Positions 7,313 to 45,492 of a DNA stretch of 64,000 nt are shown here, in pieces. Position 1 is the first letter of the stretch. Every line of letters starts with the position of its first letter. A program made the translations under genes and the position numbers. The stretch is from Candidatus Poribacteria bacterium (GTDB taxonomy: Bacteria > Poribacteria > WGA-4E > PCPOR2b): the NCBI GenBank assembly GCA_965208425.1, contig OZ242335.1, forward strand, positions 2,119,181 through 2,183,180, read 5' to 3'. The notes below the pieces were generated by a model, which searched no databases, had not been told where the DNA came from, and was given only the letters and a program-made list of their open reading frames with translations.

Positions 7313-7337
7313 CCATTAATTCTAAGATCTACCATAG
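7313..7337 (+). promoter_or_regulatory. R-box (CCATTAATTCTAAGATCTACCATAG), the right terminus of the same unit; a candidate promoter-like element
   Basis: Copies at 12634-12666, 15634-15668, 26623-26653, 34781-34808, 46927-46957, 59076-59108 and 63213-63243. Most of them lie 30-330 bp upstream of plus-strand start codons. Confidence 0.6.
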
Positions 7338-7553
7338 TTTCAGTCTGTAGGTCGAGATTCATATCTCGACAGCCTTGTGCTTTATTCTTGACATCAATTT
7401 TGCTTTAGTATATCCTTTCGGCACTTACAATTCAATCGAAAAAGTCCTTGTGAATTGTAAGTCAACGAAGGGTACTGTATCTGAACACTAGTCACCAATT
7501 CTACCGTTTTGAAGATCTGTAAATACACGACGCAGGAGGTATAAGCAAATAAT

Positions 7554-8423: not shown

Positions 8424-9455
8424 TTCGTAAAACGTGAAAACAATGAGTTCATGGGTTCATTTAGCCCCAGAGGGGCGACATGTCTATAGTACACAGGTAA
8501 ACAAATACCCTAAAGCCCCAGAGGGACGACATGTATATCCCAAGGGTGGAACATAAGAAGACTGAATTAACCAACCGACTAATGAACCGATGAACTCCCC
8601 GATAAATCGGGATCCGAAGTGGCTTGACCGATCCATACCCAGCAGGATGATATATATAAAAAAATACAATGGTTGGTAGGGAACAACGATCGTTGTTCCC
8701 TACGAGTTGGAACGTAGAAGTGCGTATATTTCGTAGGGAACGGTGATCTCCGTTCCATTTGTTAAATGTCAACAGAACCTAGTACTCTGTCAGGCAAATT
8801 ATGCTTGTGTATATGGATTGGAAGCAAACAATAACATATTAGGACTTACGCACTTCAGTAGTGAACAACGATCGTTGTTCACTATGGGCTTTTCTATGGA
8901 GTCTCTGTTGTAGTTGCCCGATTTATCGGGCGTTGTTGGGCGTTGGTGCGGCGATAAATCGCCGAACTACAGGATTTTGAGCGTTCAACTGCGTAAGTCC
9001 TGATATATAATAGCTGCAAAACTTATATGACTGAGTACTAGTGCTCAGTCAGATAAGTTTTACAATTATAGGACTTACGCATTCCAGATTGTAGTTGCCC
9101 GATTCATCGGGCGTATCGGGGCAGGTCCCGATTTATCGGGATCCTCGCTTCGCGGGAGATGCCCCTCCCACACACCGCTCAGTGCCCGCTAAAGGGGGCG
9201 AAAGGGCTTTGACCGTTCGGCTGGGCAAGTCCTGATATGTTATTGTTTGCTTTCAATCAATATACACAAGCATAATTTGCCTGACAGGGTACTAGTTGAT
9301 AAACCAAACGCTAGAAAGCAATCTATTAGGCGGGAATTAGAATTCCCTCTTACACTACGCAAAGTATACGGGGTGAGGCGTACCCTTCCGAATCATGACT
9401 TGCTTCGCTCCAATTGTACAAACTTTAGTAAAAAACTCAAAGGAGATTTTCTTTA
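8424..9455. repeat. 1-kb non-coding repeat nest (MITE/REP graveyard)
   Basis: It contains CCCCAGAGGGGCGACATGTCTATAG x2 with a conserved 23-bp spacer. It also holds GTAGGGAACAACGATCGTTGTTCCCTAC palindromes, a partial direct copy (8738-8850) and a full inverted copy (9020-9300) of the 1575-1925 element, and an 80-bp perfect-ish palindrome at 8990-9075. No ORF has protein-like composition. Confidence 0.85.
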
Positions 9456-12128: not shown

Positions 12129-12706
12129 CCCCGTAGGTTGGGTAGAGCGTTAGCGAAACCCAACATAATCAACTTTCGCTCTCTGGTAGGTGCGGTTTCC
12201 AACCGCACCGCATTCAATCCAATCCGGTAGGTGCGGTTTCCAACCGCACTGCATCAGCACAGAAAGTTCATGTAGGTCGAGATTCACATCTCGACAAAAT
12301 CTCTTGGAAAATTGACCTATAGGAGGGCTAAATGTAGGGGCAGGTTTCTTAATCCCGCCTGTCCCGATTTATCGGGGATCTATCGGGGTCTTGTGCCTGC
12401 CCAAAAAGATGAGCGCGGAGTAGCCCCGTAGGTTGGGCAGAGCGTTAGCGAAACCCAACATAATCAACTTTTGCCCTCTGGTAGGTGCGGTTTCATGAAG
12501 TTTAATTTATTAATTCGGTAATCCCGATTTTCCTCGAAACATAGGGTAGGCGCGGTTTTCAACCGCGCTGGCGTCGATAGCAAATTACCGAAGTATTTTT
12601 TTATCTTCATCCAACCGCACCGGTTTCAAATGTCTCATTAATTCTAAAATCTACCGTAAATTATAGAAATGGGCAACATCAGTCCACCGAAAAGGAGCTT
12701 TTCTTT
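12129..12706. repeat. BIME-like cluster of GTAGG-prefixed REP hairpins between paralogs 1 and 2
   Basis: It contains CCCCGTAGGTTGGGTAGAGCGTTAGCGAAACCCAAC x2 (12127, 12418), GTAGGTGCGGTTTCCAACCGCACC x3, GTAGGTCGAGATTCACATCTCGAC, GTAGGGGCAGGTTTCTTAATCCCGCCTGTCCCGATTTATCGGGG, and then the R-box at 12634. Confidence 0.85.
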
Positions 12707-15411
12707 ATGCACAGTCAGGCCAAACCCAATTTTCTGTTTTACATCTTTACGTTGTTCGTATGCCTCAATTCCTTTTTCTTAAGTAACACCGATGCACAAA
12801 CCGATAATGACTCAACTCCCCCACCGCCTGAATTCAGCTACACTTATGAGAGTATTGATGTCCCCGGCGTAAATTTTTTAGCGTTGACAGCGAGTTCTGA
12901 CTTTGAGGATTACGCGGGTTACACGCGTAGTGCTGATGGTGAAAAGGAAGTCGCCTTTACACTCATTGATGGGGTTTTTACGACCTATGATTTCCCCGGC
13001 TCGCAGAAAACTCGTTTCTATGCGCTTGGTAATGATGGGACAGCTGCGGGCCACTACCAAGATAGCGATGGTCTTTACCATGGTGTCGTCTTGAAAAATG
13101 GCGAATTGCGCCAGTACGATTTTGAGGGTGCAGTCCAAACGGAGATATATGGTTTCAGTGATGCAACGGGCGTTCTGACGGGTAATTTTATAGATGCTTC
13201 TGGCGTTCGCCGTGGATTCTCAGGGGACACAATCGTTGAAGCGCCTGATGCAACAGCAACATACGCCGATTTTGTGAACGCGAGTGGCGCTATCACAGGA
13301 AGTTACGTAGGTGCTGACGGTCTATATTATCCATACGTGCGCACCCTGAATGGCACATTTGTAATTCACGACTATCTGGATTCATCAACTCTGGAATACT
13401 TTTTTGTGCACGGTCTCACTGATACAAGGATTATCGTTGCACGAGCTAAAGCGATAGGTGATATTCCACGTTCCTATGTCGGCACATCCCAGCAAGGATT
13501 ATCTGAATTACAGTTTCCGGGCAGTGTTAGCACAGAGGGTTGGAATATTAATCAAGATGGGTCTGCCGTCGGGTATTACGACTCTGCGGATGGACGTAGA
13601 CACGGATTTATCGCCAGACCCACTGCGGAAACTGCTGAAAAATTCAGAGATATAGCTTATCCCCCCCCACCTGAATTCAATTATACTTATCAGAGCATTG
13701 ATGTTCCGGGAATAGATTTTCTGGCGTTGACGGCGAGCAGCGACTTTGGGGGGTATGCAGGCTACGCGCGAAGTCCTGATGGTGAAAAGGAAGTTGCGTT
13801 TACACTCATTGACGGTGTGTTTACAACGTATGATTTTCCCGGCTCACAGGGTACCTATTTCTATGCACTCGGCAATAATGGGTTAGCTGCAGGGCACTAC
13901 CAAGATAGCGATGGCCTTTACCATGGTGTCGTCTTGGAAAATGGTGAACTGCGCCAATACGATTTTGAGGGTGCGGTCCAAACGGAGATATATGGTTTCA
14001 GCGATGCAACGGGTGTTCTGACGGGTAATTTTATAGATGCTTCTGGTGTTCGTCGTGGATTTTCAGGGGACACAATCGTTGAAGCGCCTGATGCAACAGC
14101 AACATACGCCGATTTTGTGAACTCACAAGGTCTTGTCGTAGGCAGCTACATGGATGCTGATGGTTTATTTCATGCCTACGCGCGCACCTTGAGTGGTCGG
14201 TTTATACTTCTTGACTATCTTGACCCGCTAACTCTGGAATACTTTTTTTTACACGGTATTAACGACGGGGGGGAAGGGGTGTATTTGTGATTGCCCGATC
14301 CAAATTTGTGGATGATATTCCACGCTCCTATGTCGGCTCATATCTGTACGGGCTACACGAATTGTGGTTTCCGGGTAGCGTGAGCACAGAGGGTTGGAAT
14401 ATCAATCAGGACGGCTCCGTCGTCGGACACTATGACTCAGCAGATGGGCGCAGACACGGGTTTATTGCCAGACTCGGCACTAAATCAGAGAGCGATTATT
14501 TTAGTAACGCCTTCAATATCACGCTCGATAAAGGTTTGAACATGATTTCTGTGCCGTTGTCACCACCAACACCGATGACTGCGAAGTCACTTGCCGCGCT
14601 GACAGGGGCGACCACCGTCATCACACTCGATACGGCAAACCAGCAGTTCGTCGGGTGGACGCCAAGTGCACCGGACGACGGGTTTCCTATTGAAGGTGGG
14701 AAAGGTTATATCGTCAATGTTCCGGAAACTCGCGAATTTGCCTTCGTCGGGTCAGAATGGACAAATCAGACGGAAACTGCAGCAGCACCTGCTATCTCCG
14801 TGGAGCCGGTCCAAGAAGCGTGGGCGTTCGTTGTAAGTGGTCACTTGGACGGCAAAGCAGCGTTTGACGATTACCAAGTAATCGTCCGTAACCTCAGAAC
14901 AGACAGGGTGATAACTGCTTCGGTGCAAGGTGATTACTTCGCCGCGGCAACCGCCGACTTGGCGCGCCGGAGCGTTGTCGAAGTTGGAGATGTCATTGAA
15001 GTCCGTGTTATTGGGCCGGGTGGAAATGTTGAATCACACACGCTCAACTTTGAAGTAACCCCTGAGGACCTAGCGAACGCGGTTATGTCTATCAGGCTTG
15101 ACAGTATCGGTCAACCGAAACTGACGCAGCTGTTGCAGAACTTCCCCAATCCGTTCAACCCGGAGACATGGATTCCATACCAGCTTGAAACAGCCGCAGA
15201 TGTCACCCTCCAGATTTATGATACGTCTGGCGATCTGGTGCGGACATTAGATCTCGGTTTCAAGGGACAAGGGTTCTATATGACACGCTCTAGGGCAGCG
15301 TACTGGGATGGGCGTAACAATTTGGGCGAGCAGGTTGCCTCTGGGATTTACTTCTACAGTTTGCATACCCCTGACTTTTCAGCGACTCGGAAGATGTTAA
15401 TTTTGAAGTAG
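12707..15411 (+). pseudogene. secreted HAF-like-repeat protein paralog 2, reading frame broken at a G7 homopolymer (about 14265-14290). The ORF track splits it into 12707-14290 and 14287-15411.
   Basis: The N-terminal part (527 aa, MHSQAKPNFLFYIFTLFVCLNSFFL...) stops at HGINDGGEGVYL*. The downstream frame continues IARSKFVDDIPRSYVGS..., homologous to the IVARAKAIGDIPRSY segment of the intact repeats. The C-terminal module is more than 90% identical to those of paralogs 1 and 3. Confidence 0.75.
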
Positions 15412-15709
15412 CCCCGTAGGTTGGGTAGAGCGTTAGCGAAACCCAACATAATCAACTATGGTGGATTCTAAAAACAGATAGACACTTTCGTCCTTTGGTA
15501 GGTGCGGTTTCCAACCGCACCGCATCGGCACAGTTAGAAACAGTGCCTACCAAACCGGAGAACGGTAGGTGCGGTTTCCTAACCGCACCCGTGCCGACTC
15601 GTCGAGCATCCTTGATAAATCGGGATTTGAAGTGTCTCATTAATTCTAAGATTCACTATAAATTATAGGAATGGACAACATTAGTCCACCGAAAGGGAGT
15701 TTTTTCTTT

Positions 15710-18382
15710 ATGCACAATCAGACCAAACCCAATTTTCTGTTTTTCGTGTTTATGTTGTTCGTATGCCTCAATTCCTTTTTCCTAGGGAATAGTGCTGCCC
15801 AAGTTCAAGATGAACCCGTTGGTATATCTGCCAACTATACTTTTGAAACGATCGACGTTCCGGGCGTAGATTTTTTAGCGTTGACGGCAAGTTCCGATTT
15901 TGAGGATTATGCCGGTTACACGAAAAGTGCTGATGGTGAAAAAAATGTCGGTTTTACACTGATTGATGGCATTTTTATAACCTACGATTTCCCTGGTGCC
16001 CAAAACACGTATTTCTACGCGCTTGGTAATGATGGGCGCGCTGCGGGCTACTACGAAGATAGCGAGGGTTTGCACCACGGTGTTATCTTGGAAGATGGTG
16101 AGATACGGCAATACGATTTCCCCGATGCTGTGCAAACAGAGATATACGGTATTAGTGACGCGACGGGAGTATTGACGGGTAATTGGATAGATGCTGCTGG
16201 TGTTCAGCGTGGATTTACAGGAGACACAATCCTTGAGTTCCCCGGGGCAACAGCAACATTCTCCGATTTCGTCAACTCCGCAGGCAATATGTTCGGCAGC
16301 TACATAGATGCTGACGGGCTATTTCAAGAATATGCATATTCCTCGGATGGCAGGTATATAGCTTTCGATCTCGCAAATGCAGAAAATCTCGAATTCTTTT
16401 ATGTGCATGGTTATAACGATACAAAGACAAGGGTTGCCCGAGGTAAAGTGTTCGGTGATGTCACACGCACTTATCTAGGTACATTTGTTGACGGTCTGCG
16501 GGAATTGAAGGTTCCGGGCAGCGTCAGCACAGAAGGTTATAATATCAATCAGGACGGTTCTGTTGTCGGGTTCTATGAGACACCCGATGGACGTAGACAC
16601 GGGTTTATTGCCAAACCCATTGAAGTCGTTGATAAACCCGTTTTCCAAATCAGTGGCTTCAACTATACTTATGAGAATATTGATGTACCGGGCGTAGATT
16701 TTCTGTCGTTGACAGCAAGTTCTGACTATGAAGATTACGCGGGCTACACGAAAAGTGCCGATGGCGAAAAAATGGTCGCCTTTACCCTTATTGATGGTGT
16801 TTTTAAGACCTACGATTTTCCCGGTTCACAGAATACCTATTTCTTTGCACTCGGTAATAATGGCGATGCTGCCGGCTACTACGAGGATAGCGAGGGGCAC
16901 CACCGCGGTATCGTCCTACAAAATGGCGAGTTACGCCAATACGATTTTCCGGGCTCCGTTGAAACAGAAATATACGGCATTTCTGATGCAACGGGGAACC
17001 TGACGGGTAATTGGACAGATGCTTCCGGCGTGCGTCGCGGATTCACAGCGGACATAATCGTTGAGTATCCGGGGGCATCGGAAACATTCGCCGATTTTAT
17101 CAATGCGTCAGGGGGTATGGTCGGCAGCTACGTAGATGCCGAGGGTACATATACACCATACCTACGCGCTGGAGATGGCAGGTTTGTATCTTTCGACCTT
17201 CCGACCGAAGAAACTTATGAATTCTTTTATGTGCACGGTCAAACCGATACGAAGATTTCCGTTGCTCGAGGCAAAGTCGTAGGTGATGTTCCCCGCACTT
17301 ATGTCGGTTCATTCCTTGGGGGGCTCCATGAATTGAAAGTTCCAGGCAGCGTTTCAACGGAAGGGTACAATATCAATCAGGACGTTTCTGTCGTTGGACA
17401 CTATGACTCCCCGGATGGACGCAGACACGGCTTTATCGCAAGACTCGTTGATAAAGCAGAGAGCGAGCATTTCGGCAATACTTATACCGTCACGCTGGAT
17501 AAAGGTCTGAACATGATCTCTGTGCCGTTGTCACCACCAGCGCCGATGACTGCAAAATCGCTTGCGGGGCTGACAGGAGCGACAACCGTCATCACACTCG
17601 ATACGGCAAACCAGCAATTTGTCGGGTGGACACCAACCTCACCGGACGACGGTTTTCCAATTGAAGGTGGAAAAGGCTATATCGTCAATGTTCCGGAAAC
17701 TCGCGAATTTGCCTTTGTCGGGTCAGAATGGACAAATCAGACGGAAACTGCAGCAGCACCCGGTATATCCGCGGATCCAGTCCAAGAAGCGTGGGCGTTC
17801 GTTGTGAGTGGTCACTTGGAGGGTAAACAAGCGTTTGACGGTTATCAAGTAATCGTCCGTAATCTGAGAACAAACGAGGTGATAACCACCGCAGTACGAG
17901 GCGATTACTTCGCCGCTGCAACCGCCGACTTGGCGCGGCGGAGCGTCGTCGAAGTTGGAGATGTCATTGAGGTCGATGTCATCGGTCCCGACAGAAATGT
18001 TGAATCACACACCCTCAATTATGAAGTGACCCCTGAAGACCTAGCGAATGCGGTTATGTCTATCAGGCTTGACAGTATCGGTCAACCGAAGCTGACTCAG
18101 TTGTTGCAGAACTTCCCCAATCCGTTCAACCCGGAGACATGGATTCCATATCAGCTTGAAACAGCCGCAGATGTCACCCTCCAGATTTATGATACGTCTG
18201 GCGATCTTGTGCGGACGTTGGATCTCGGTTTCAAGGGACAAGGGTTCTATATGACGCGCTCTCGGGCCGCGTACTGGGACGGACGCAACAACTTGGGTGA
18301 GCAGGTTGCCTCTGGAATTTACTTCTACAGTTTGCATACCCCCGACTTTTCGGCGACACGCAAGATGCTGATTTTGAAGTAG
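15710..18382 (+). CDS. secreted HAF-like-repeat protein with C-terminal NPFNPET sorting-like domain, paralog 3 of 3
   Basis: The ORF track starts at 15671. Homology to the paralog N-termini and the GAAAGGGAG RBS favour the ATG at 15710 (MHNQTKPNFLFFVFMLFVCLNSFFLGNSAAQ). The architecture matches paralog 1. The C-terminal 300 aa are almost identical to those of paralogs 1 and 2. Confidence 0.85.
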   Translation: MHNQTKPNFLFFVFMLFVCLNSFFLGNSAAQVQDEPVGISANYTFETIDVPGVDFLALTASSDFEDYAGYTKSADGEKNVGFTLIDGIFITYDFPGAQNTYFYALGNDGRAAGYYEDSEGLHHGVILEDGEIRQYDFPDAVQTEIYGISDATGVLTGNWIDAAGVQRGFTGDTILEFPGATATFSDFVNSAGNMFGSYIDADGLFQEYAYSSDGRYIAFDLANAENLEFFYVHGYNDTKTRVARGKVFGDVTRTYLGTFVDGLRELKVPGSVSTEGYNINQDGSVVGFYETPDGRRHGFIAKPIEVVDKPVFQISGFNYTYENIDVPGVDFLSLTASSDYEDYAGYTKSADGEKMVAFTLIDGVFKTYDFPGSQNTYFFALGNNGDAAGYYEDSEGHHRGIVLQNGELRQYDFPGSVETEIYGISDATGNLTGNWTDASGVRRGFTADIIVEYPGASETFADFINASGGMVGSYVDAEGTYTPYLRAGDGRFVSFDLPTEETYEFFYVHGQTDTKISVARGKVVGDVPRTYVGSFLGGLHELKVPGSVSTEGYNINQDVSVVGHYDSPDGRRHGFIARLVDKAESEHFGNTYTVTLDKGLNMISVPLSPPAPMTAKSLAGLTGATTVITLDTANQQFVGWTPTSPDDGFPIEGGKGYIVNVPETREFAFVGSEWTNQTETAAAPGISADPVQEAWAFVVSGHLEGKQAFDGYQVIVRNLRTNEVITTAVRGDYFAAATADLARRSVVEVGDVIEVDVIGPDRNVESHTLNYEVTPEDLANAVMSIRLDSIGQPKLTQLLQNFPNPFNPETWIPYQLETAADVTLQIYDTSGDLVRTLDLGFKGQGFYMTRSRAAYWDGRNNLGEQVASGIYFYSLHTPDFSATRKMLILK

Positions 18383-18456
18383 CTCCGTAGGTTGGGTAGA
18401 GCGTTAGCGAAACCCAACATGATGAGTTTAATGCGGAGTCAGGAAGGACTAAAAAA

Positions 18457-19293: not shown

Positions 19294-19577
19294 TAGGCAC
19301 GCTCTGTGTGCCGTAACCTGCCCCCATTTCCGTAGGTCGGGCATCCCCCGCGGGATCCTCCCGGACTTGTCCGGTGCTTCGTAGGGAACGCAGATCTGCG
19401 TTCCATTTTTTTTACGTATTACGAATTACGTATTATACTTCATTAACCCCAGTTGCTTTGAATCCCGATCCTATCGGGGCAGGGCGGTATGTTTATAGAA
19501 TACCAGCGATCTAAATCTTCTCAAGCCCCAGCGGGGCGACATGTGTGTAGAACGTCATCCAAAAAAGGAAACGACAA

Positions 19578-26469: not shown

Positions 26470-26705
26470 TTACTTTTGATTTTGGATTATGTTAAGAAAT
26501 GGTGCAACAAAACCGGTTCGCTCATATAAAGAGGTCGTACAACACTTTCACGCCCCGTGTTTGGTAGGCGCTCCCCGATAAATCGGGATCGCAAGCAGAG
26601 TTTCCAACTGCGCCGATTTGCAGTGTCCAATTAATTCTAAAATCTACCATAATATTTTGTATTTCCATAGATTCGCGTTAATTCGCGGATGCTTTGCACC
26701 TCTCC

Positions 26706-27979: not shown

Positions 27980-30148
27980 ATGAATCACAGAGTACATAAT
28001 CAGATCGTCAACTTTATTTGGGGGATTGCGGACGATGTGTTGAGAGACATCTACACACGTGGGAAATACCGAGACATTATTCTCCCGTTCACCGTTCTAA
28101 GAAGATTGGATGCCCTCTTAGAGCCCACAAAAGAAAAAGTGCGCGAAGTCAACCAATTCCTGATTGAGAACCAGATTGATGATAAATCTGCTCTAAAGGG
28201 GCAATCTGGCTATAAGTTTTATAATACCTCGAGGTTCACTTTCAAAATCTTGTTGAACGATCCAAACCACATCGGTTCAAACTTGAAAAATTATCTGGAC
28301 GGTTTCAGTGAAGATGTGCAGCAAATTATCAGCAAATTCAAACTCAAGAACCAACTCGAAACATTGGAAGATGCTGGTATCACCTTTGCCTTGATTTCAA
28401 AATTCGTTTCCAGAGACATCAATCTGAGTCCCGAAGAAGCAGTAAATAGCAAAGGTGAAATACTGCCTCCGTTAACCAACTTGGGAATGGGTTATGTCTT
28501 TGAGGAATTGATCCGAAGGTTCAGTGAGGAGAACAACGAGGAAGCCGGTGAACACTTTACCCCAAGAGAAATCATCAAACTGATGACTCATCTGCTATTC
28601 CTACCGGTGAAGGATAAACTCACAGAGGGCACAACATATCTGATTTATGACCCCGCCTGTGGGTCGGGCGGAATGCTTACAGAAGCGGAACTGTTTGCCA
28701 AGGAATTGACGCAGGAGCGAAATGAATTTTTCCTTTATGGACAAGAGGTCACCCCGGAAACCTACGCGACTTGCACGGCAGACATGCTAATCAAGGACAA
28801 AGATCCTGAAAACATCGCCCACGGTTCTACTCTCTCAGAAGACAGTTTCCCGCACCTGCGATTTGACTTCATGCTCTCCAATCCGCCCTATGGCAAAAGT
28901 TGGAAACTTGACTATGATGCGATTGTTGGTGACAAAAAGCAAATCAAAGACGATCGATTTCGCGTCGGTGTCCCCAGAGTCAGCGACGGACAACTCCTTT
29001 TTCTCTCCAATATGATCTCTAAAATGAAGCACGACACGGCACTCGGAAGTAGGATCGCTATTGTTCATAACGGATCTGCTATCTTTACGGGGGAGGCTGG
29101 AAGTGGCGAGAGTGAAATCCGTAAACAGATGATTGAAAATGATTGGTTGGAGTGTATTATTGAACTTCCCCAGAACATCTTTTACAACACCGGGATTTCA
29201 ACCTACATCTGGATTCTTTCCAATCGGAAGCCGAACCGCCGCCAAGGGAAAATACAACTTATTGATGCCTCCCAACTTTACCAGAAGCTCAACAAGAATT
29301 TAGGGCAGAAGAATTGTGAGTTAACGGACGAGCACATCGACAAAATTACGCAGCTCTATCTTAACTTTGCAGAAAGCGAGATCTCAAAGATTTTTGGGAA
29401 CGCAGAATTTGGCTATCAAAAAATCACCGTTGATCGACCATTACGGCTGTCCGCTAGATTCACCCCTGAGGCAGTCGAAACGCTCCGTTTTGCGAATGTC
29501 CTCCGGGCTGAAATGGAATGGGTTTATAAACGATTTGGCGATGCAGTTTATGAGGATTTAACACCCCATAAGCAACAGATTGAGGCGTATATCGCTTACA
29601 ACGAAATCAAGATCAGCCCCGCAAATAATAAGAAAAAGCTACTTGACCCGAAGTTTTGGAACACACAAAGAAAAGTCATGGAAGCAGCCGAAAAGTTGAT
29701 GGTGGAGTTGGGCGACTACGAATCTAATGACTTTAATAAATTCCGACATGCGGTTGATGATACCCTCAAAATGTTTGGGATTTCACTCAGTGCAATCGAA
29801 AAGAAAACAATTTTCAATGCCGTTAGTTGGAAGGACGAAAGTGCACAACCTGTCATCAAAAAATGGGACCGGGATGGCACGTTCCATTATGAGCCTGATC
29901 CAGACCTAAGAGATACAGAAAATGTTCCGTTGGTGCAAGAGATTGACGACTACTTCCAAACGGAAGTTCTGCCCTATGTACCTGATGCGTGGATCGATGA
30001 AGATAAAACTGTTAAAGGCTATGAGATTCCCTTTACCAAATACTTCTACCGGTATCAACCGTTGCCAAGTCTTGAGGAGATTACTGCTGACGTTCTTGTT
30101 CTTACACAGGAAACCGAGGGCATTTTACAGGATATCATCGAATCGTAG
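27980..30148 (+). CDS. hsdM: Type I restriction-modification system, DNA methyltransferase subunit M (long form, 722 aa)
   Basis: The RBS is AAGGAGAA. Motif I is IYDPACGSGGML and motif IV is MLSNPPYGKSW (NPPY, N6-adenine). An HsdM_N-like N-terminus is present, plus a ~200-aa C-terminal extension. Confidence 0.9.
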   Translation: MNHRVHNQIVNFIWGIADDVLRDIYTRGKYRDIILPFTVLRRLDALLEPTKEKVREVNQFLIENQIDDKSALKGQSGYKFYNTSRFTFKILLNDPNHIGSNLKNYLDGFSEDVQQIISKFKLKNQLETLEDAGITFALISKFVSRDINLSPEEAVNSKGEILPPLTNLGMGYVFEELIRRFSEENNEEAGEHFTPREIIKLMTHLLFLPVKDKLTEGTTYLIYDPACGSGGMLTEAELFAKELTQERNEFFLYGQEVTPETYATCTADMLIKDKDPENIAHGSTLSEDSFPHLRFDFMLSNPPYGKSWKLDYDAIVGDKKQIKDDRFRVGVPRVSDGQLLFLSNMISKMKHDTALGSRIAIVHNGSAIFTGEAGSGESEIRKQMIENDWLECIIELPQNIFYNTGISTYIWILSNRKPNRRQGKIQLIDASQLYQKLNKNLGQKNCELTDEHIDKITQLYLNFAESEISKIFGNAEFGYQKITVDRPLRLSARFTPEAVETLRFANVLRAEMEWVYKRFGDAVYEDLTPHKQQIEAYIAYNEIKISPANNKKKLLDPKFWNTQRKVMEAAEKLMVELGDYESNDFNKFRHAVDDTLKMFGISLSAIEKKTIFNAVSWKDESAQPVIKKWDRDGTFHYEPDPDLRDTENVPLVQEIDDYFQTEVLPYVPDAWIDEDKTVKGYEIPFTKYFYRYQPLPSLEEITADVLVLTQETEGILQDIIES

Positions 30149-30277
30149 GTCGAATTTCAAAATTCGACGATAATATTCATCAATATGTAGTTCTCTACGA
30201 ATTGTGCGAAATCTTACTCCTTGACAACCTAGGGAGTTTCAAATCAAGACAACATCTGGTAAGTATTTGCGTCATTC

Positions 30278-31621
30278 GTGATGAAGTACAACTGTCAACG
30301 AACGAAAAGCGAACTAATAAAAATGTACAAACGGTATAACAGTTATAAGGAATCCGGATTCGCGTGGCTGGGGGAGATTCCGAGTCATTGGGAAGCGTCC
30401 ACGATCAATGCTCTAACAAAGGTTGTAAGTCGAAAAAATAAACCGAGCGAGCCATTGCTTTCTGTTTACAGGGATTATGGAGTTATTCTGAAAAGTTCAA
30501 GAGATGATAATTATAATAAGCCCGGACAAGATTTAAGTGCCTACAAGTTTGTTAAGCCTACGAATCTAGTCCTAAACAAGATGAAAACGTGGCAAGGGTC
30601 GCTTGGTGTCTCGGAGCTTCAGGGAATTGTGAGCCCTGCATATATCACGTGTGAGTTAGACATCTCAAATGTATTTCCAAAGTATTTGCATTATCTACTG
30701 CGATGCCACAATTACATTTATGAGTATAACAGATTATCGTATGGCGTAAGAACTAACCAGTGGGACATGAGGTACGATGATTTTAAGAAAATACCTGTGT
30801 TTTTGCCATCGAAGCAAGAACAACATGCCATTGCCGCCTTTCTTGACCGCAAGATTACCGAAATCGACCGCTTCATTGCTAGTGAAGAGAAGCTCATTGC
30901 CCAGTTAAATGGGCAGAGAGCTGTCATTATCAACCATGCTGTTACAAAGGGACTTGACTCGGACGTGCAAATGAAAACGTCGAAGGTTAAGTGGATTGTG
31001 GAGATGCCAAAACACTGGACAATTACAAAATTGAAATATACTTCCAACATTCCTGTGACTTATGGTCTTAATATTGAGGCAGATAGATATACTACAGAAG
31101 GAATCAGATTGATTAGAATTACTGATATTGATGAAAAAGGTGGTCTCCGAAAAAGAGGGGTTTATCTGCCTGAAAACTGTGTTCCTCGAGAGCAGATGCT
31201 TAATGGTTATGATTTGCTTTTGTCTCGTAGTGGCGCAACGGTGGGAAAATCCTATTTGCACCTTGAAGCAGGGCAATACACTAGTGCAGGCTATCTGGTT
31301 AGATTTAACTTCGGTGATTATTACACGTCTAAGTTTATTTATTACGTAACACAATCACACTTTTATCGGAATTGGCTTGAGCAACAGATAATTATAGCGA
31401 CAATTCAGAATGTTAATGGCGAAAAGTATTCAAATTTTCAACTCCCTATTCCTTCGCATCAAGAACGGAAACATATTGTCAACTTCCTCAACTACAAAAC
31501 TAAACAGATCGACGAGTTTGTATCCAAAGAACGCCAAAAAATCGAGCTTATCAAACAATACCGCCAAGTCCTCATCTCTCAAGCGGTCACCGGAAAAATT
31601 GATGTGAGAGGGACAGTATGA
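30278..31621 (+). CDS. hsdS: Type I restriction-modification system specificity subunit S (two target-recognition domains)
   Basis: A 447-aa, AT-rich ORF of about 38% GC. A duplicated TRD architecture is separated by conserved coiled regions (...EKLIAQLNGQRAVII... and ...ELIKQYRQVLISQAVTGKIDV). The start is uncertain: 30278 or 30323. Confidence 0.85.
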   Translation: MMKYNCQRTKSELIKMYKRYNSYKESGFAWLGEIPSHWEASTINALTKVVSRKNKPSEPLLSVYRDYGVILKSSRDDNYNKPGQDLSAYKFVKPTNLVLNKMKTWQGSLGVSELQGIVSPAYITCELDISNVFPKYLHYLLRCHNYIYEYNRLSYGVRTNQWDMRYDDFKKIPVFLPSKQEQHAIAAFLDRKITEIDRFIASEEKLIAQLNGQRAVIINHAVTKGLDSDVQMKTSKVKWIVEMPKHWTITKLKYTSNIPVTYGLNIEADRYTTEGIRLIRITDIDEKGGLRKRGVYLPENCVPREQMLNGYDLLLSRSGATVGKSYLHLEAGQYTSAGYLVRFNFGDYYTSKFIYYVTQSHFYRNWLEQQIIIATIQNVNGEKYSNFQLPIPSHQERKHIVNFLNYKTKQIDEFVSKERQKIELIKQYRQVLISQAVTGKIDVRGTV

Positions 31622-31676
31622 TTAACCCTCCCTAGGTTGATTTTGACAACTCGGCCTACAAGTGTAAGGACAAAAA

Positions 31677-34658
31677 TTGATGAATACAACAGACATGCGC
31701 GAGCGAGGTTTTCAGAAATCCATTGCGGGATACCTCACCCAAACCAACGGCTACCGAGAGACGAAATCAGGAGACTACAATACAGAATTCTGTGTCAACA
31801 GAGCCCAATTGCTGGAGTTTATCAAAAAAACCCAAGAAGACGCTTACGAACTCATTCAGAAAAGGGGTGAGCGGGAGTTTTTGGTACGTTTAGATGAAAA
31901 AATTGAAAAGAGGGGAGTTGTCGAGGTCCTCCGCAAAGGAATCAAACACTTCGACAAAACCGTTCGTGTTTTCTACACGCAACCTGTATCGGAGCTCAAC
32001 CCTCTGGATAGCGAACGGTACAACGCCAATATCTTCTCTGTAACGCAGGAATTGATTTATAGCGAAAATAATAACAACGAGCTAGACCTTGTTATTTTTA
32101 TTAATGGTTTACCAATCATCACAATGGAGTTGAAGAACGGCTATACTAAGCAGTCCGTTTTTAACGGCATCCGTCAATATCAGAATGACCGTGACTCCAA
32201 GGAGAAGCTATTCAACCTCGCCAGATGCCTCGTCCACTTCGCTGCCGATACCGACTTGGTCTATATGACAACGCATCTGAAGAACAAACACACCCAATTT
32301 TTGCCATTCAATAAAGGGCAGAACAATGGGAAACCTACCCCCCCTTACGGCGCAGGCAACCCCGTCAACCCAAACGGTGAAAAAACACACTATCTTTGGG
32401 AGGAGGTGCTTACCAAAGATAGCTTGAGCAATATTATTGAGAGGTTCGCCCAAGTGGTTGTCGAAAAAGATGAGGATACCCAAGAAACAGCAAGAAGACT
32501 AATCTTTCCAAGATACCATCAACTCAAAGTCGTTCGGAATTTGCTATCACACGCCAAAGAGAATGGTGTCGAGCAAAAATACCTCATCCAGCATTCGGCG
32601 GGCTCCGGTAAATCCCATTCTATCACGTGGCTTGCCCACCAACTTGTCGGTTTGCATGACCAAACCAATACCCAGAACATCTTTGACAGTGTAATCGTTG
32701 TTACGGATCGAACTGTCTTGGATGAGCAGATCCGAGAACACATCAAGGATTTTGCACAGGTAAAAGATGTCGTCGCTGCTATCACCGGAGTTGGAGACAC
32801 TAAGACTCAGCAACTTGAGTCTGCCATCGTGGACCAGAAAAAGATCATCACTACAACGATACAGACGTTTCCATTCCTCGTTGACAAAATCGAAAAGATG
32901 GAAGGTGCTAACTTTGCGATTATCATTGATGAAGCCCACAGCAGTCAAAGTGGGGAATTTACTGCCAAAATGAACACGGTTTTAGCGAACAAAGAGCCGA
33001 ACGATGAAGATGAGGAAGTCGAAGAGACGTGGGAAGACACAATCAACGCGCTAATCAACGCTCGCAAGATGCTCACAAATGGCAGCTATTTCGCCTTTAC
33101 TGCAACGCCTAAAAGCAGGACACTTGAAACCTTCGGTCAAAAAGGAACAGATGGCAAATTCTATCCCTTCCATCTCTACTCAATGAAGCAGGCGATTGAA
33201 GAAGAGTTTATTCTTGACGTTTTGCAAAATTACACGACATACAACTCTTACTATAAGCTCATCAAAACTGTTGAGTACAACCCTGATTACGACATCAAGA
33301 GTGCCCAGAGAGAACTCCGCCATTACGTTGAAAATCACGAATACGCAATCACCCAAAAAGCCCGAGTCATGATTGACCACTTTATGCAAGAAGTAAAGCA
33401 CCGCATTCACGGTCAAGCAAAAGCAATGGTCGTCACGAGCTCCATCCCGAATGCGATTAAATACAAAGAGGCGTTTGACACCTACCTAAAGGAACTTAAC
33501 TCATCATATAAAGCGATTATCGCCTTTTCCGGCACGAAGCAGCACAAGAGTATTGAAGTACGCGAATCCGACCTCAACGGATTCCCGGATAACGATAACG
33601 ATATCCGCAAACATTTCAAAAAAGAGGAATACAAGTTCCTTATCGTCGTCGAGAAATTCCAAACCGGTTTTGACCAACCTCTTTTACACACGATGTATGT
33701 TGATAAAAAGTTGGCAGGTGTCCATGCTGTTCAAACCTTATCTCGATTGAATCGAGCGTATAAGCCCCATAAGAGAGATACGTTTGTCTTGGATTTTGTG
33801 AATACGGTTGACGACATCAGAGAAGCGTTTGAACCCTATTACACAACCACTATCTTGACCGAAGAAACCGACCCCAACCGGCTCAACGATCTGCAAGAAG
33901 TTTTGGAGGGTTATCAGGTTTACTCAGAAGTAAAGGTGAAAGAATTCTGCATGTTGTATCACAGTGGTGCGGAGAGGTCTGAAGTCGCTCCAATTCTGGA
34001 TGCTGCTGCCCAAATCTTCAAAGACGATTTATCTGAGGAAGAAAAGATTGATTTCAAAACCCAAGCCAGATCATTTGAGCGAACTTATAGTTTTCTAGGG
34101 TGTCTCCTTGACTTCAATAATCCCTATTGGGAGGAGTTGTGGTGGTTTCTGAAATTTCTCATTCCCAAGCTCACAATTGACAATACCGAGGACTTTGCTG
34201 CCGACATTCTGGATGAGGTTGATATGGAGAGCTACAGAGTTTCGATACAGGGGATGACAAACATTGCGTTGGAAGAAGAGGATAGTGAGGTTGCTCCGCT
34301 TTCAATTATCGAAAGTGGTCAACAGCGTGATCCTGATCTCGACAGCTTGGAAAATATCATTGAAGCGTTCAATCAGCGTTTCGGAGACATTGAATGGGAG
34401 GATAACGATAAGGTTCGCAGAATCTTGAGTGAAGAAATCCCAAATGAGCTGAAAGGCAACAGTGATACGATCCAGACAATCCAGAGCTCAGATCCGCAGA
34501 ATGCGAAAATCGCCTCTGACAGGAAACTTGCTGAATTTATGCGAGCGTTGTTGTTCACGCACACGGAGATCTATAAGAAATTCACCGATGATCCTGACTT
34601 CAAGAGTCAATACGAAGATTTTGTATTCGATATCCTGCGGCAACAGAGAGATCGTTAG
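31677..34658 (+). CDS. hsdR: Type I restriction enzyme endonuclease/helicase subunit R
   Basis: A 993-aa ORF. The N-terminal PD-(D/E)xK nuclease is ELDLVIFINGLPIITMELKN. SF2 helicase Walker A is HSAGSGKSHSITW and the DEAH box is IIIDEAHSSQ. The C-terminus is typical of HsdR. Confidence 0.9.
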   Translation: MMNTTDMRERGFQKSIAGYLTQTNGYRETKSGDYNTEFCVNRAQLLEFIKKTQEDAYELIQKRGEREFLVRLDEKIEKRGVVEVLRKGIKHFDKTVRVFYTQPVSELNPLDSERYNANIFSVTQELIYSENNNNELDLVIFINGLPIITMELKNGYTKQSVFNGIRQYQNDRDSKEKLFNLARCLVHFAADTDLVYMTTHLKNKHTQFLPFNKGQNNGKPTPPYGAGNPVNPNGEKTHYLWEEVLTKDSLSNIIERFAQVVVEKDEDTQETARRLIFPRYHQLKVVRNLLSHAKENGVEQKYLIQHSAGSGKSHSITWLAHQLVGLHDQTNTQNIFDSVIVVTDRTVLDEQIREHIKDFAQVKDVVAAITGVGDTKTQQLESAIVDQKKIITTTIQTFPFLVDKIEKMEGANFAIIIDEAHSSQSGEFTAKMNTVLANKEPNDEDEEVEETWEDTINALINARKMLTNGSYFAFTATPKSRTLETFGQKGTDGKFYPFHLYSMKQAIEEEFILDVLQNYTTYNSYYKLIKTVEYNPDYDIKSAQRELRHYVENHEYAITQKARVMIDHFMQEVKHRIHGQAKAMVVTSSIPNAIKYKEAFDTYLKELNSSYKAIIAFSGTKQHKSIEVRESDLNGFPDNDNDIRKHFKKEEYKFLIVVEKFQTGFDQPLLHTMYVDKKLAGVHAVQTLSRLNRAYKPHKRDTFVLDFVNTVDDIREAFEPYYTTTILTEETDPNRLNDLQEVLEGYQVYSEVKVKEFCMLYHSGAERSEVAPILDAAAQIFKDDLSEEEKIDFKTQARSFERTYSFLGCLLDFNNPYWEELWWFLKFLIPKLTIDNTEDFAADILDEVDMESYRVSIQGMTNIALEEEDSEVAPLSIIESGQQRDPDLDSLENIIEAFNQRFGDIEWEDNDKVRRILSEEIPNELKGNSDTIQTIQSSDPQNAKIASDRKLAEFMRALLFTHTEIYKKFTDDPDFKSQYEDFVFDILRQQRDR

Positions 34659-35078
34659 GAGACTGGTGGGGCCTATTTTATAGTGAATTCTAAAAATAAA
34701 TAGACGTCAAAAGTAGTAGGCACACGGCGTGTGCCCTAACTGTGTGCACAAGGTTGCTGACCTCGCTTGTTCATAGTGTCTAGTGAATTCTGAAATCTAC
34801 TATAAATTGCTGTGGAATAGGTACAGAACATTGGTTGAGTTTCTTCAAGATTTTCCAAGAACAAAAAGACGAAAAATCTATCAACGCTGAACTGAATAGA
34901 CTAAGGACTTTAGTAACTGGTATAGATAGGGAAACCGACCACCAAATAACTGACGCATTGGAAAAATCGTGTCGGGTATTGATGATCTGTTGTATCAAAG
35001 ACAAACATAGGATTTGGCGTTGTGAACTTAATCGCACTCCACACAGAACCCAACGTAGAATAACCTCAAAGAGAAAAA

Positions 35079-35515
35079 CTATGAGCACAGACAAGGAAAA
35101 ACTCCAAAAGTATGAAGAAGATACTGAACAAGAAATAAAGGACGAAATCAACGAACTAGACAACAGAAAAGCACTAACCGCTCAAATAACATGTACATCC
35201 CTGCTAATCATATCTTCGATGATGATAGGATACACAGCCAAACTTCCAACAACCACATGCCTAACAAAGCTAACATTCACAGCATTTACATCAACCATCA
35301 TACTAACCATAATCTCACTTATCATTAGCAAGATAAAGCTAGACAAAGACATCAAAAAATACATTACAAAGATAAAAGAAAGAGACTTTAAGCCCGAAGA
35401 AAAACCATACAATGAAGACGCATTATCAAGAACAGGAGAATACCTATCGGTATTATCAATAGTAACATTCCTAACCGGCATAATCACAGCAACAATAACA
35501 ATAATCTTAACATAA
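35079..35515 (+). CDS. hypothetical small membrane protein (low-complexity, A-skewed); coding strand uncertain
   Basis: MSTDKEKLQKYEEDTEQEIKDEINELDNRKALTAQITCTSLLIISSMMIGYTAKL... has 3-4 predicted TM helices. The 226-aa ORF-track extension begins with TTG at 34835. Overlapping minus-strand ORFs of similar length exist because of extreme strand compositional skew. Confidence 0.3.
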
Positions 35516-35530
35516 TCCCCAAAGAAAGGA

Positions 35531-35719
35531 TTGAGCATGAACACGAAAGAAAAGGATACACCACGAGACAAAGAAGACCCCATACGAGAGCATGGCATAC
35601 CATCCAGAACCCCCACCATACCAATAACAGAGCCACCAATACCAACAGATACTCCTGAAGAAGCACCAGAAACCCCACAGCCCGATAACCCACCACCTGA
35701 AGAACCAGAAAAGGAGTAG
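35531..35719 (+). CDS. hypothetical small acidic Pro/Glu/Thr-rich protein
   Basis: A 62-aa ORF with an AAAGGA RBS: MSMNTKEKDTPRDKEDPIREHGIPSRTPTIPITEPPIPTDTPEEAPETPQPDNPPPEEPEKE. It is low complexity and may not be coding. Confidence 0.25.
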   Translation: MSMNTKEKDTPRDKEDPIREHGIPSRTPTIPITEPPIPTDTPEEAPETPQPDNPPPEEPEKE

Positions 35720-35767
35720 CAAACACAATCTCAAGTCATAAACTTAGCAACGCCTAGGATTTAAACC

Positions 35768-36157
35768 TTGACCTATGGAGATTTCAAAATGCAACTCGAA
35801 GATTATTTTGACTTTTTGTCGGAGGATGATATTCGGATTAAAGACACGCGCATCGGCATTGAGAGCGTTCTATACGAGTATATCCATCGCGACCAGGAGC
35901 CAAAAGCCATAGTGCAGTGCTACCACACGCTTTCTCTGGAACAAGTTTACGCAACGATTCTCTATTATCTGCACAACAAAGAAAGGGTCGGTGCGTATTT
36001 GGCAGATTACCTCGAATACTGTCGAAAGTCGAAAGAGGACTACGAGAAAAATCTACCACCTGTAGTGGCGCGACTCCGACAACTCAAAGCAGAACGTGAA
36101 TCAGGGGAAGCGAGAATTGTTCATTCGCCCACCGAACCGGGCGACATAATGCCCTAA
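35768..36157 (+). CDS. DUF433-like protein (putative antitoxin-like DNA-binding fold)
   Basis: A 129-aa ORF. IRIKDTRIGIESVLYEY...QCYHTLSLEQVYATILYYLHNKERV resembles the DUF433 core (RI.GTRI.V..VL... P.Lt.eqv.aAL.YY). Confidence 0.4.
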   Translation: MTYGDFKMQLEDYFDFLSEDDIRIKDTRIGIESVLYEYIHRDQEPKAIVQCYHTLSLEQVYATILYYLHNKERVGAYLADYLEYCRKSKEDYEKNLPPVVARLRQLKAERESGEARIVHSPTEPGDIMP

Positions 36158-38936: not shown

Positions 38937-39318
38937 ATCCCTTCTTCAGAACCAGTGTTCGATTCTTGCTTCTACGTTCATAATTCACCTAAATCTACCA
39001 TAGGGCATCGGCTGAAAAATGTCAAGCGAAAATTAGGAGTTAGACTTCGGAAATCTCTTGTCCAGAACCGTTAAATCGGTTATCCTTTCGTCTAATAACC
39101 CAAGCTGCTACCCATTGAAGATCTATCTGTTTTCTCGTAGGGGCGGGGTTCCCCCGTCCGTAAAATCAGTCTTTCGCTCCAGCGGAGCGAGATGTCTATA
39201 GCACGGCGATAAGATCAATCCCTGCGCTCCAGTTTTGAATCCCGATTTATCGGGGAGGAGCGCAATGTGTATAGCAGTGAACCAATGAACCTGATCATTT
39301 CCACGAAAGAGAAAAAAT

Positions 39319-40155: not shown

Positions 40156-40692
40156 ATTATGCTGGTGAATCTCCATTTACCAATTTAGACTGGGCAATCG
40201 CGTGTGAAAGATATTGAAACCAAAGATGGTAGGGGCAGCCCTTGTGGCTGCCCTTGCGTCAAAAGCCTACTTTGCACCAATCCAGCAACACTGTGGCTGC
40301 TACATTTACTTATCCCTATCCTCTGTGGAGCCTGATGCCTGAGAGGCATAGGGATTTCACACCTAACTTCTTATCCTGTTAATCCGTTAATCCTGAAAAT
40401 CCTGATTCAGACAACAAGCCGCGCCATCCGCCGAATCCGCGATTCAGACAATACCGATGAATTGCCATCTGCCGATCCACAGGAAAACCCTTGCCCAATA
40501 CCGCAAAATCGGTTATCCTGTTTCCTGCTCGACACGTTTTATACTTTCTTTTTAATGAACCCCGAGATTGGGTGTCCAAACTCGACAGCGCCAATGAACC
40601 AATGAACTAATGAACCAATGAACCTGACCAACGTTCTTCACGTTTCACGCTTTGTACATTCTTTTTCCATAAGCCATAGGAGACAACAACCG

Positions 40693-42683: not shown

Positions 42684-42896
42684 ATTGGCGTCCGTTTCTA
42701 GGGCGTGTTGACATTTATGTAAGGTGCGTTTGTCATTTGATGATAGCTGTCCAATCGTAGGGGCGAGGTTTCCTCGCCCAACGGGTTGGGAAACCCACCC
42801 CCTACAAGAATCGACCTAATGTAGGGGCAACCCTTCTGGTTGCCCTGACTTGTGTTTGCTTAACGTTTCATTTCCAGAATTAATGGGACCGCCGCC

Positions 42897-43582: not shown

Positions 43583-44521
43583 CTACTTTGTTACCTTTAT
43601 TTTCCCTAAAAGCGTTGGAGTCAATTCCTGTGGCGAGACAGATAGGGTGGCATTCCGTTCTTGTGGGGCAAAATCATCGCCTGCCCCGTAGGTCAGCTGT
43701 GTCAACCTCCTATCAGCGAGCCGGAACTGAAAAATCTTCCATTGATTGTTGTCCTTCCATTTACCAGCAAAGAGAACCGACTTGCCATCGACAGAAAAAG
43801 CGGCGGAATGATAAACCATCTCTAGCCTAGCTGGGACAGGCACCCGCCGCGATCTAATAATTGCTCTCTTAAATTGGTTAAGCGTGGCAATAACGAGCGT
43901 GTCCTTATCTGCCGGCATGTCCGCTTCTGCATACAGAAGCTGCTGCCCATCGGGCGACCACCCTTCCAAAATCATCGCTCTTGCTATCTCGGGGTGCTCT
44001 GCAAGCCGCGCCGGTGCTCTGCCCTGTGCGTTTATCACATAAATAGAGTAGCTACCAAAAGCAAATTGGGTTCCATCGGGCGACCACTTCGGTTTGTCAA
44101 TAAACCGTCCATGTCGTGTGATCTGTTTTACATTACTGCCATCGGCCTCCATCACGAACAGGGAAGACGGGTTCTTGCGCCTGCTGGTAAATGCAATTCG
44201 TGAACCGTCCGGCGACCATGTAGGAGATGAATCAGACGCAGGGTGATTGGTCAGATTGCGTTGATTCCTCCCATCGGCATCCATCAGATATATCTCCTTG
44301 TTCCCGTCTCGATCGCTTTCAAAGGCAATCTGTCGTCCATCGGGAGACCAAACAGGCGAGGAATCGGCAGCCGCGTTAAATGTCAACCGCGCGGGATTGT
44401 TCCCGTTGGCGTTCATAGTATAGATTTCTTCATTTCCCTCCCGATTGGAATAAAAGACAATTTTGCCCCAAAGGGGAGGAGTGACAAGCCAAAGGCAAGC
44501 CACGAAAATATAGATACGCAT
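43583..44521 (-). CDS. TolB-like periplasmic beta-propeller (PD40/WD40-like repeat) protein, paralog 1 of 3
   Basis: A 312-aa ORF with a signal peptide. It has repeated PD40 units (SPVWSPDGRQIAFESDRDGNKEIYLMDADG...). Confidence 0.85.
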   Translation of the reverse strand: MRIYIFVACLWLVTPPLWGKIVFYSNREGNEEIYTMNANGNNPARLTFNAAADSSPVWSPDGRQIAFESDRDGNKEIYLMDADGRNQRNLTNHPASDSSPTWSPDGSRIAFTSRRKNPSSLFVMEADGSNVKQITRHGRFIDKPKWSPDGTQFAFGSYSIYVINAQGRAPARLAEHPEIARAMILEGWSPDGQQLLYAEADMPADKDTLVIATLNQFKRAIIRSRRVPVPARLEMVYHSAAFSVDGKSVLFAGKWKDNNQWKIFQFRLADRRLTQLTYGAGDDFAPQERNATLSVSPQELTPTLLGKIKVTK

Positions 44522-44538
44522 CGTTACACCTCTGATTT

Positions 44539-45483: not shown

Positions 45484-45492
45484 AGAACACCT

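Follow-up and report, generated by a model that had tools for sequence, protein, structure and literature searches.

The question raised by the locus described here is how one very small palindromic repeat has come to lie inside the loops of several unrelated repeats, and which of the two forms, with or without it, came first. The locus is a stretch of 64,000 nucleotides (the window, meaning the whole stretch of DNA analysed) from a Candidatus Poribacteria bacterium (assembly GCA_965208425.1, contig OZ242335.1, positions 2,119,181 to 2,183,180 of the forward strand), and the repeat, called module H below, is a hairpin followed by a short tail. An earlier note, made from the letters of this DNA alone, had described the hairpin as nested in other repeats and had read the nesting as direct evidence of recent mobility. 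Our analysis suggests, with a probability that we put at roughly 0.6, that H is a non-autonomous insertion module of about 20-27 nt that enters the loops of hairpin repeats, and that the filled hosts are then copied as composites.

Results

The core of module H is the 14-mer CCCGATAAATCGGG, which has 16 matches at no more than one mismatch in the 64-kb window against 0.02 expected from dinucleotide-preserving shuffles, and looser matching brings the number to about 20 copies. The claim that the micro-hairpin is repeated and occurs inside other repeats is thus borne out, with exact junctions, although the palindromic core is 14 nt long and not 16 bp. All 17 copies counted (the 16 plus a loop variant at 19464) are intergenic, in the non-coding 19% of the window, seven on the plus strand and ten on the minus strand; the genes of the window are mostly on the plus strand. 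A profile of 58 copies from the window and from Poribacteria loci, oriented by the A-rich loop, gave the consensus C-CCCGATAAATCGGG-ATYCAAANC. Since flank conservation is confined to positions -1 to +9, outside which the composition is random, the unit is about 24 nt long. It consists of a GC-rich hairpin of 5-6 bp, CCCGA-TAAA-TCGGG, and a tail of about 6-12 nt that usually starts with AT and often finishes with AAC; the tail types are ATTCAAA(GCA)AC, ATTAAGAAAC, ATTTTCAAC, ATCGAAACC, ATGCAGCAC, ATCGCAAGCAGA, ACAGGC, CAACTACA and GTAAACTA. The stem is near-invariant between species and the tails drift, and one variant, CCCGAC..GTCGGG, shows a compensated stem change. Two further modules, H2 (CCC(T/C)GGTCACGGGATCCTCTCGGAC) and H3 (CCCCGCGGGATCCTCCCGGAC), share with H the layout CCC-loop-GGG-AT...AC, a likeness drawn from only a few variants. 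The sequences on the two sides of H are complementary over at least 5 nt (longest exact complement) in 47% of copies against 20% of shuffled flanks. Constrained minimum-free-energy folds, scored by their enclosing base pairs, gave no separation between real flanks and shuffled ones.

Clean pairs of filled and empty hosts were found in at least seven host contexts, including P, R1/E1, R2, R5, R6, K1 and H itself, and the distinct insertion contexts of H number at least 10. In these pairs the two forms differ by the module alone, without loss of a host base and without target duplication; such duplications, which the earlier note had proposed to look for at the insertion points, were looked for and none was seen in the clean pairs. 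The inserts are 20-27 nt long and stand mostly after C, with YC^T in four host families. Their orientation is fixed relative to the host loop: H follows the strand reading TC^T in 6/6 cases in R2 and R6, and is antisense to the host in 8/8 cases in P. Insertion, not deletion, is the polarity, and the long-loop forms are the derived ones, because the empty forms outnumber the filled ones and have tight loops of 3-5 nt.

The best-populated host is P, a hairpin of the form ..GCCCCAG(C/A)GGGGCGACATGTGTATAG that occurs mostly as doublets 51 nt apart. Among 44 P units in the window and the Poribacteria loci, 36 are empty and eight filled, always at CCAG^(C/A)GG, by a 23-nt insert, TTTTGAATCCCGATTTATCGGGG, or a 26-nt one, TTGCTYTGAATCCCGATTTATCGGGG, which differ only by a 3-nt indel. 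The filled units include both stem variants, both loop bases and both short and long tails. Because the A or C that follows the insert corresponds to the two loop variants of the empty units, no host base has been lost or duplicated. The P stems covary (GCCCC/GGGGC 14, GCTCC/GGAGC 13, GCACC/GGTGC 1, with almost no mixed pairs), and in the predicted folds of filled P, as in those of filled R5, the host stem is kept with the H hairpin within it. The split units that had been reported at 39205-39262 and 62938-62990 are both present with adjusted limits. The first lies at 39224-39274 and carries the minus-strand insert CCCCGATAAATCGGGATTCAAAA of 23 nt in its loop at 39233-39255; the second, at 62951-63001 within a 174-nt composite (62884-63057), carries a minus-strand insert of 26 nt with the tail ATTCAGAGCAA at 62959-62984. 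The related variant noted earlier at 19458-19500 is a further P unit (19446-19498), in which the minus-strand variant CCCGATAGGATCGGG, with the tail ATTCAAAGCAA and the loop ATCCTAT, occupies 19453-19479.

A pair already described in the earlier note involves the REP-like hairpin R1 (REP, repetitive extragenic palindrome). The filled copy GGTAGGCGCT^GTTTCCAACTGCGCC, noted earlier at 26560, spans 26563-26614 on the plus strand and contains 27 extra nucleotides at 26573-26599; this insert, CCCCGATAAATCGGGATCGCAAGCAGA, is CCCCGATAAATCGGG with the tail ATCGCAAGCAGA, and the final G formerly assigned to it belongs to the host. The intact hairpin of the same sequence, previously given as 63181-63205, lies at 63179-63203. 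Filled and empty forms differ by an exact indel, both against this copy and against the Poribacteria loci L016, L092 and L115, and the predicted fold at 26563-26614 forms the H hairpin with the R1 host stem disturbed. R1 is the centre of E1, a miniature inverted-repeat transposable element (MITE) of about 105 nt whose imperfect terminal inverted repeats (TIRs) are each about 32 nt long. The E1 flanks of the filled and empty R1 copies align along the whole 105-nt element. An intact compact E1 with an empty central R1 lies at 63133-63242 on the plus strand. Among E1 copies H occurs at four different positions, never together in one copy. The E1 copy at 58874-59107 (plus strand) is expanded to about 234 nt, against about 105, and holds a nest of three levels, with R1 at 58916-58940, the hairpin CCCGATTCTCGGG at 58974, H at 58989 and an inverted R1+H composite copy that carries a further H (59027-59040, tail GTAAACTA). 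Its innermost nest, at about 59.0 kb, has imprecise junctions, as has L115 at 6366. A degenerate H, CTTGATAAATCGGG, lies at 15611-15624 on the plus strand in an E1 copy, between its R1 and its right TIR. Right TIRs of E1 occur at 7285-7338, 12607-12660, 15609-15662, 34753-34806, 46904-46957, 59054-59107 and 63189-63242. Their end reads TATAAT or CATAAT and lies 10-220 nt upstream of plus-strand gene starts in 7/8 copies, so that the right TIR could serve as a portable -10 element; a consensus scan gave no -35 match near it.

REP-like hairpins with a GTAGG...CCTAC foot are abundant and have several compensated stem types, and 38 of 43 (strict arms) have loops of 3-5 nt. R5 is empty, as GTAGGGGCAACC^CTTGTGGTTGCCC, at 3031-3055, 40229-40253 and 42821-42845, and is filled at 49140 and in L078 with the insert CCCCGATAAATCGGGATTAAGAAA; the filled copy of the window (49140-49188, in the sufC-sufB spacer) holds a plus-strand H of 24 nt with the tail ATTAAGAAA in its loop at 49152-49175. 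R2 is empty, as GTAGGTCGGGCATC^TTGCCCGACCTAC, at 4728-4754 and, as GTAGGTCGGGCATCTTGCCCGACCTAC, at 62871-62897, and is filled with CCCGATAAATCGGGATTTTCAAC in L118 (position 4738; REP start 4765, minus strand). R6 is empty, as GTAGGCGGGGCATC^TTGCCCCGCC, in L093 and is filled with CCCGATAAATCGGGATCCAAAGCGAC in L030. The site is not reserved for H: both H2 and H3 occupy the REP loop site GGGCATC^TTGCC, and the R2 hairpin at 19332-19374 (plus strand) carries H3 at GGGCATC^TTG, the same site at which H is inserted. The K1 repeat is empty, as ..CTCGCCC^CTACGATT.., at 42718 of the window and in L078, and carries CCCGATAAATCGGGATGCAGCAC in L009, L012, L028 and L080. Tail types cross host boundaries: ATTCAAAGCAAC is found in P, in R6-like and in other stems, and ATTAAGAAAC in R5, in H itself and elsewhere.

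H is also a host of H. The nested module CCCCGATAGATC^[CCCGATAAATCGGGACAGGC]^GGGATTAAGAAAC at 12344-12388 (minus strand, inner unit 12357-12376) is entered in its own 3' arm, at ATC^GGG, by a junction that recurs in L061, L118 and L044, and is itself enclosed at 12363 by a GGGCAGG/CCTGCCC stem. Two different inner types use this site, one with the ACAGGC tail in four genomes and one with the tail ATTAAGAAAC in L071. Nesting thus reaches up to three levels and follows the kind of hierarchy that had been suspected: H is always innermost in REP-like or P hairpins, which can in turn sit in a MITE, and none of the REP-like, P or E1 elements turned up within an H module.

Truly free copies of H are a minority. 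Of the three copies that had been cited as free, which lie at 1818-1831, 8598-8611 (not 8590) and 12363-12376, only the second looks free; it is on the plus strand, has the tail ATCCGAAGTGG and has no recognisable host stem. The first is part of a composite at 1818-1860 (plus strand) in which two H hairpins stand 29 nt apart and which is repeated in inverted form at 9098-9140 (minus strand, H match at 9127), and the third is the nested module already described. The other copies, all on the minus strand, are CTCGATAAATCGGG with the tail ATTAAGAAAC at 3104-3117, a copy with the tail CAACTACAA at 8917-8930, one with the tail GTAAACTA at 62776-62789 and CCCGATAGATCGGG with the tail ATTTTGCTAC at 63071-63084.

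Searched with the pattern CCCGATAAATCGGGAT, a set holding a single genome for each bacterial species gave at least 119 loci, 24 of them from Poribacteria. Among the matches listed, the sole organisms with more than one match are about 12 Candidatus Poribacteria genomes, which hold these 24 loci, and the matches listed from other phyla are single chance hairpins, for example in tRNA-like tandem units. By blastn, the window matched only the 24 Poribacteria loci among those fetched. The neighbours of its proteins bear Poribacteria names, and exact look-ups of two window proteins gave no match. Its nearest available relatives, L120-L122, are syntenic with it at a DNA identity of about 86%, so that presence and absence at orthologous sites were scored on whole host elements only. 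H is absent from the 23.7 kb of L120-L122, the closest lineage, which have P and REP-like repeats, and L123 and L124 have no repeats of any family. The spacer between the GFO and metallo-beta-lactamase genes is 236 nt in the window against 69-73 nt in L120 and L122, and the extra 172 nt (26502-26673, plus strand) are a window-specific segment with an E1 copy and its nested H. Similarly, the moaA-sufC-sufB-sufD spacers measure 217, 288 and 608 nt in the window against 90-133, 45-47 and 0-95 nt in two relatives, both of which (87% SufB identity) lack all of the repeat families. P doublets are present or absent between genomes at two more spacers, where the alignments are poor. Just one pair of orthologous loci, L020 and L067 (90% identical), occurs among the genomes fetched, and it has no H polymorphism. 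A scan of viral contigs for H gave chance hairpins only, apart from L209, an IMG/VR contig with a GC content of 0.51, in which the H-like hairpins CCCGGTAAATCGGG and CCCGATAAATCGGG are directly flanked by heptamer arrays at 3200-3290 and 5850-5900. L209 has no DNA similarity to the Poribacteria loci, and this contig, although labelled viral, may represent a similar architecture in another organism.

The coding content of the window is ordinary metabolism with a moaA-sufCBDS block, oxidoreductases, a type I restriction-modification island and three paralogous surface-protein genes. The island (27980-36157) lies between the GFO and SHMT genes and holds HsdM, an open reading frame (ORF) of 447 amino acids that matches the HsdS region of L120, an unscanned ORF of 993 amino acids that is presumably HsdR, and small genes. 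GFO and SHMT are adjacent in L121 and are parted in L120 by another island, with HsdS, DUF433/DUF5615, TnpB and an N4/N6 methylase, and the interval looks like a variable hotspot for defence islands. At 9456-18382 three tandem paralogous genes (890, 527+374 and 903 amino acids) each contain repeated segments of about 831 nt. In 9456-12128, the one that was scanned, the C-terminus is of the FlgD_ig/CHU_C kind (type IX secretion); the 12707/14287 pair has the look of a single gene split in two, and an ortholog is present in L071. Copies of another repeat, R3 (GTAGGTTGGGTAGAGCGTTAGCGAAACCCAAC), lie at 12124-12199, 12419-12494, 15407-15482 and 18378-18453; R3 starts at and overlaps the last bases of each of these surface-protein genes and recurs once more in the following spacer. 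Three further tandem paralogous genes lie on the minus strand at 43583-46479, of which the one scanned (43583-44521) encodes a PD40/WD40 beta-propeller; they have relatives in L020 and L067. An ORF of 82 amino acids at 50865-51113, with the look of a Phd/YefM-like antitoxin, lies in the swollen sufB-sufD spacer. Arrays of the heptamers or octamers TTACGTA, CCAATGAA, TTTCACG and GTTTTAC adjoin repeats at 19412-19435, 40591-40624, 46689-46726 and 55663-55697.

Discussion

The filled and empty pairs point to two steps. H enters the loops of other hairpin repeats, or sites beside them, in a single orientation and mostly after C, and the filled hosts then multiply as composites, giving rise to up to three levels of nesting and to swollen intergenic and intercistronic spacers. 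We weakly favour a trans-acting enzyme, recognising single-stranded hairpin DNA, as what would move H. An HUH/Y1-type transposase, either a REP-associated tyrosine transposase (RAYT) or a TnpA of the kind found in IS200/IS605 insertion sequences, is the leading guess, held with a confidence well under even; it is based on the GTAGG...CCTAC REP-like hosts, the missing target duplication, the end formed by a hairpin plus 10 nt and the one-sided strand orientation. Cleavage of REP DNA by RAYTs falls at a CT dinucleotide, which would fit the C^T junctions of H. Single-strand transposition is expected to leave a strand bias. The asymmetric repeats of the window do favour one strand (plus/minus: P 18/0 in ten clusters, right TIR of E1 8/0, R1 9/2, R3 4/0), and they do so independently of the gene strand; P at 4766-6296, for example, lies between minus-strand genes, and in L028, where every gene is on the minus strand, all six P units are on the plus strand. 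This one-way orientation may be a replication-strand bias. That the whole forms a second independent system of hairpin cassettes of about 24 nt, inserted enzymatically, site-specifically and orientation-specifically into REP-like loops at a shared docking site, is possible but rather doubtful.

Several observations weigh against our reading of H. The GC skew of the window tracks gene strand, so that it gives no replication direction to which the strand bias could be related. No transposase of any kind was found by Pfam among the window proteins, and no Y1 or RAYT gene was found by tblastn, with IS200, IS608 and RAYT probes, in about 290 kb of Poribacteria sequence; the RAYT probe did match one gene in an unrelated locus. 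H is a single hairpin without GTAG, unlike REPs and the ends of IS200/IS605 elements, and its target motif is loose, mostly after C, yet GCGCT^G in R1. Filled forms with the same junctions occur across species in P, E1 site c and K1, and recurring junctions of this kind mean that composite amplification, or gene conversion of P, could explain many of the filled units. Neither was a filled and empty orthologous pair differing by H alone seen at strain level among the genomes compared. Neither a TnpB-only element in L120 nor a fragment in L056 showed any link to H.

The most serious alternative grows out of these shared junctions. It holds that H is immobile now, and that a few ancient insertions or illegitimate recombinations were followed by amplification and gene conversion of the composites through the mobility of their hosts. 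In its favour, the 174-nt composite, in which a P doublet carries H, matches L012 1469-1641 of another species at 93.7% identity, where the flanking genes are unrelated; the ATCGCAAGCAGA tail is restricted to the R1 context (26574 and about 59012); and the short and long tails in P are separated by no more than their 3-nt indel. Composites at non-orthologous sites in other species imply that some filled units were copied as composites and not hit independently, and at least part of the nesting was inherited and spread in this way. The earlier proposal of repeats inserted in repeats stands, with H as a discrete unit with exact junctions, but its claim of recency is not supported, since the same composites are found in other species. 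As an explanation of all the nesting, however, an immobile H is unlikely, although it must be taken seriously, in view of the ten or more distinct insertion contexts, the tail types shared by unrelated hosts, the module within a module with its two inner types, and the different modules H2 and H3 at one loop site.

A second alternative is that H is not selfish but a selected functional motif, a protein-binding site or an RNA element that works in loops. The near-invariant stem with its drifting tails would suit such a role, as would copies within operons, for example between sufC and sufB. The hairpin with its ATTGAAAC-like tails also resembles the 3' part of the type I/III repeats of clustered regularly interspaced short palindromic repeats (CRISPR) that are cut by Cas6, and the tails ATTGGAAAC, ATTAAGAAAC and ATCGAAAC resemble the 8-nt CRISPR handle. 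Against this reading, the orientation of H relative to transcription is mixed (7 plus, 10 minus) and antisense in the P units, the spacing of H is irregular and no CRISPR-like arrays were found, and the same operons lack H in related genomes. The window has no Rfam match, either at the gathering threshold or at E<=5, no tRNA by a tRNA scan and no cas genes in the Pfam scans. Taken together, these observations make a functional motif improbable, and they set H apart from CRISPR repeats.

The insertion of H into loops has a mirror image, raised by the earlier note itself, in which the long loop is the ancestral state and the short-loop forms are deletions, so that there would be no insertion polarity. 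Exact enzymatic excision would yield the same pairs, and nothing else speaks specifically for it. This view fails on four grounds and is very improbable. Empty units form the majority in every host family, including 36/44 P units and 38/43 GTAGG hairpins; their loops are tight and canonical; the four positions of H in E1 are never filled together; and the same module, with shared module types, is found in unrelated hosts, which would need an ancestor filled everywhere. Least probable of all is an origin of the insertions in replication itself, through template switching or hairpin-primed synthesis between repeats and without a dedicated enzyme. In its favour, the partners are all hairpins, the DNA around them is dense in repeats and no enzyme was found. 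Against it, exact junctions recur at one and the same nucleotide, unrelated sites receive the same unit of about 24 nt, and inspection of the junctions revealed no useful microhomology.

Set beside known systems, H is a new family of nested mini-repeats in a new phylum and not a new kind of system. Its closest precedent, in our assessment, is the small dispersed repeats (SDR1-8) of the Nostocaceae. Elhai and colleagues reportedly described Nostocaceae SDRs in 2008 as sequence-unrelated hairpin families of 21-27 nt that nest precisely in each other and in mini-transposons, and the SDRs of Nostoc are said to adjoin heptamer tandem arrays. H resembles them in its size of about 20-27 nt and its 16-20 dispersed copies in 64 kb, in its precise nesting in P, R1/E1, R2, R5, R6, K1 and H, and apparently in a hairpin layout common to sequence-unrelated families, the two systems being compared by description only; the heptamer arrays near dispersed repeats in the window recall those around Nostoc SDRs. 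H differs in that it occurs in sponge-symbiont Poribacteria, another phylum, presumably in its sequence, and in its targets, which are the loops of GTAGG REP-like and P hairpins, whereas the SDR target is the HIP1 octamer. SDRs are mentioned in PMC5861425 and PMC3116915, and PMC5861425 reports that, among HIP1-rich cyanobacteria, no SDR-like repeats were found beyond the Nostocaceae. Our literature searches found no description of the present repeats in Poribacteria.

The hosts R2, R4, R5 and R6, rather than H, resemble the REPs of PMC3116915, with a GTAGG foot, variable compensated stems and short loops. These host hairpins are both intergenic and intercistronic and stand in mosaic clusters like bacterial interspersed mosaic elements (BIMEs). 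H differs from REPs, which are imperfect palindromes of 20-40 nt, and from their paired forms, REPINs, in being shorter and in having no GTAG, so that the GTAG foot is found in R2, R4, R5 and R6 but not in H, and no cognate RAYT was found in either the window or the Poribacteria loci fetched. We know of no description of REPs or REPINs that includes small modules inserted in their loops. Insertion sequences of the IS1397/ISKpn1 type do insert into the loops of REPs, or palindromic units, according to the section of PMC3116915 that cites its references 41-42. They share with H the use of REP hairpin loops as specific insertion targets, but they are about 1.4 kb long, with a transposase and target duplications, whereas H is about 24 nt long, non-coding and inserted without duplication. 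IS200/IS605 elements have two different ends, each with a subterminal hairpin, and insert 3' of a fixed motif of four or five nucleotides. H resembles these elements, palindrome-associated transposable elements (PATEs) and the 3' ends of Helitron/IS91 elements in having a hairpin about 10 nt from its end and no target duplication, and it resembles IS200/IS605 in inserting 3' of a short motif; it differs from the latter in its single hairpin, in its only loose YC^ target and in the lack of any cognate TnpA found, and we do not place it among them. MITEs are longer than about 100 nt, have TIRs and target duplications and can nest, and BOX and Correia-type repeats are modular. The present repeats are likewise non-autonomous and nest into mosaics, and E1 is itself a TIR-type MITE, but H is 4-5 times smaller, lacks TIRs and target duplications, and does not belong to this class.

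Ever since the SDRs of Nostoc were described, the way in which elements of 20-27 nt move has been an open question, and a phylogenetically distant second system gives comparative leverage because it has clean junctions, one docking site for several cassettes and relatives without the module. A comparison of gene content across Poribacteria that have H and those that lack it could reveal the enzyme. If the cassette system is real, it would mean that single-strand DNA transposition targeted to hairpin loops operates below any known element size, in at least two phyla. For the sponge symbionts themselves, the nested repeats lengthen the intercistronic spacers of housekeeping operons such as suf; they will break metagenome-assembled genomes built from short reads, and they could serve as strain markers.

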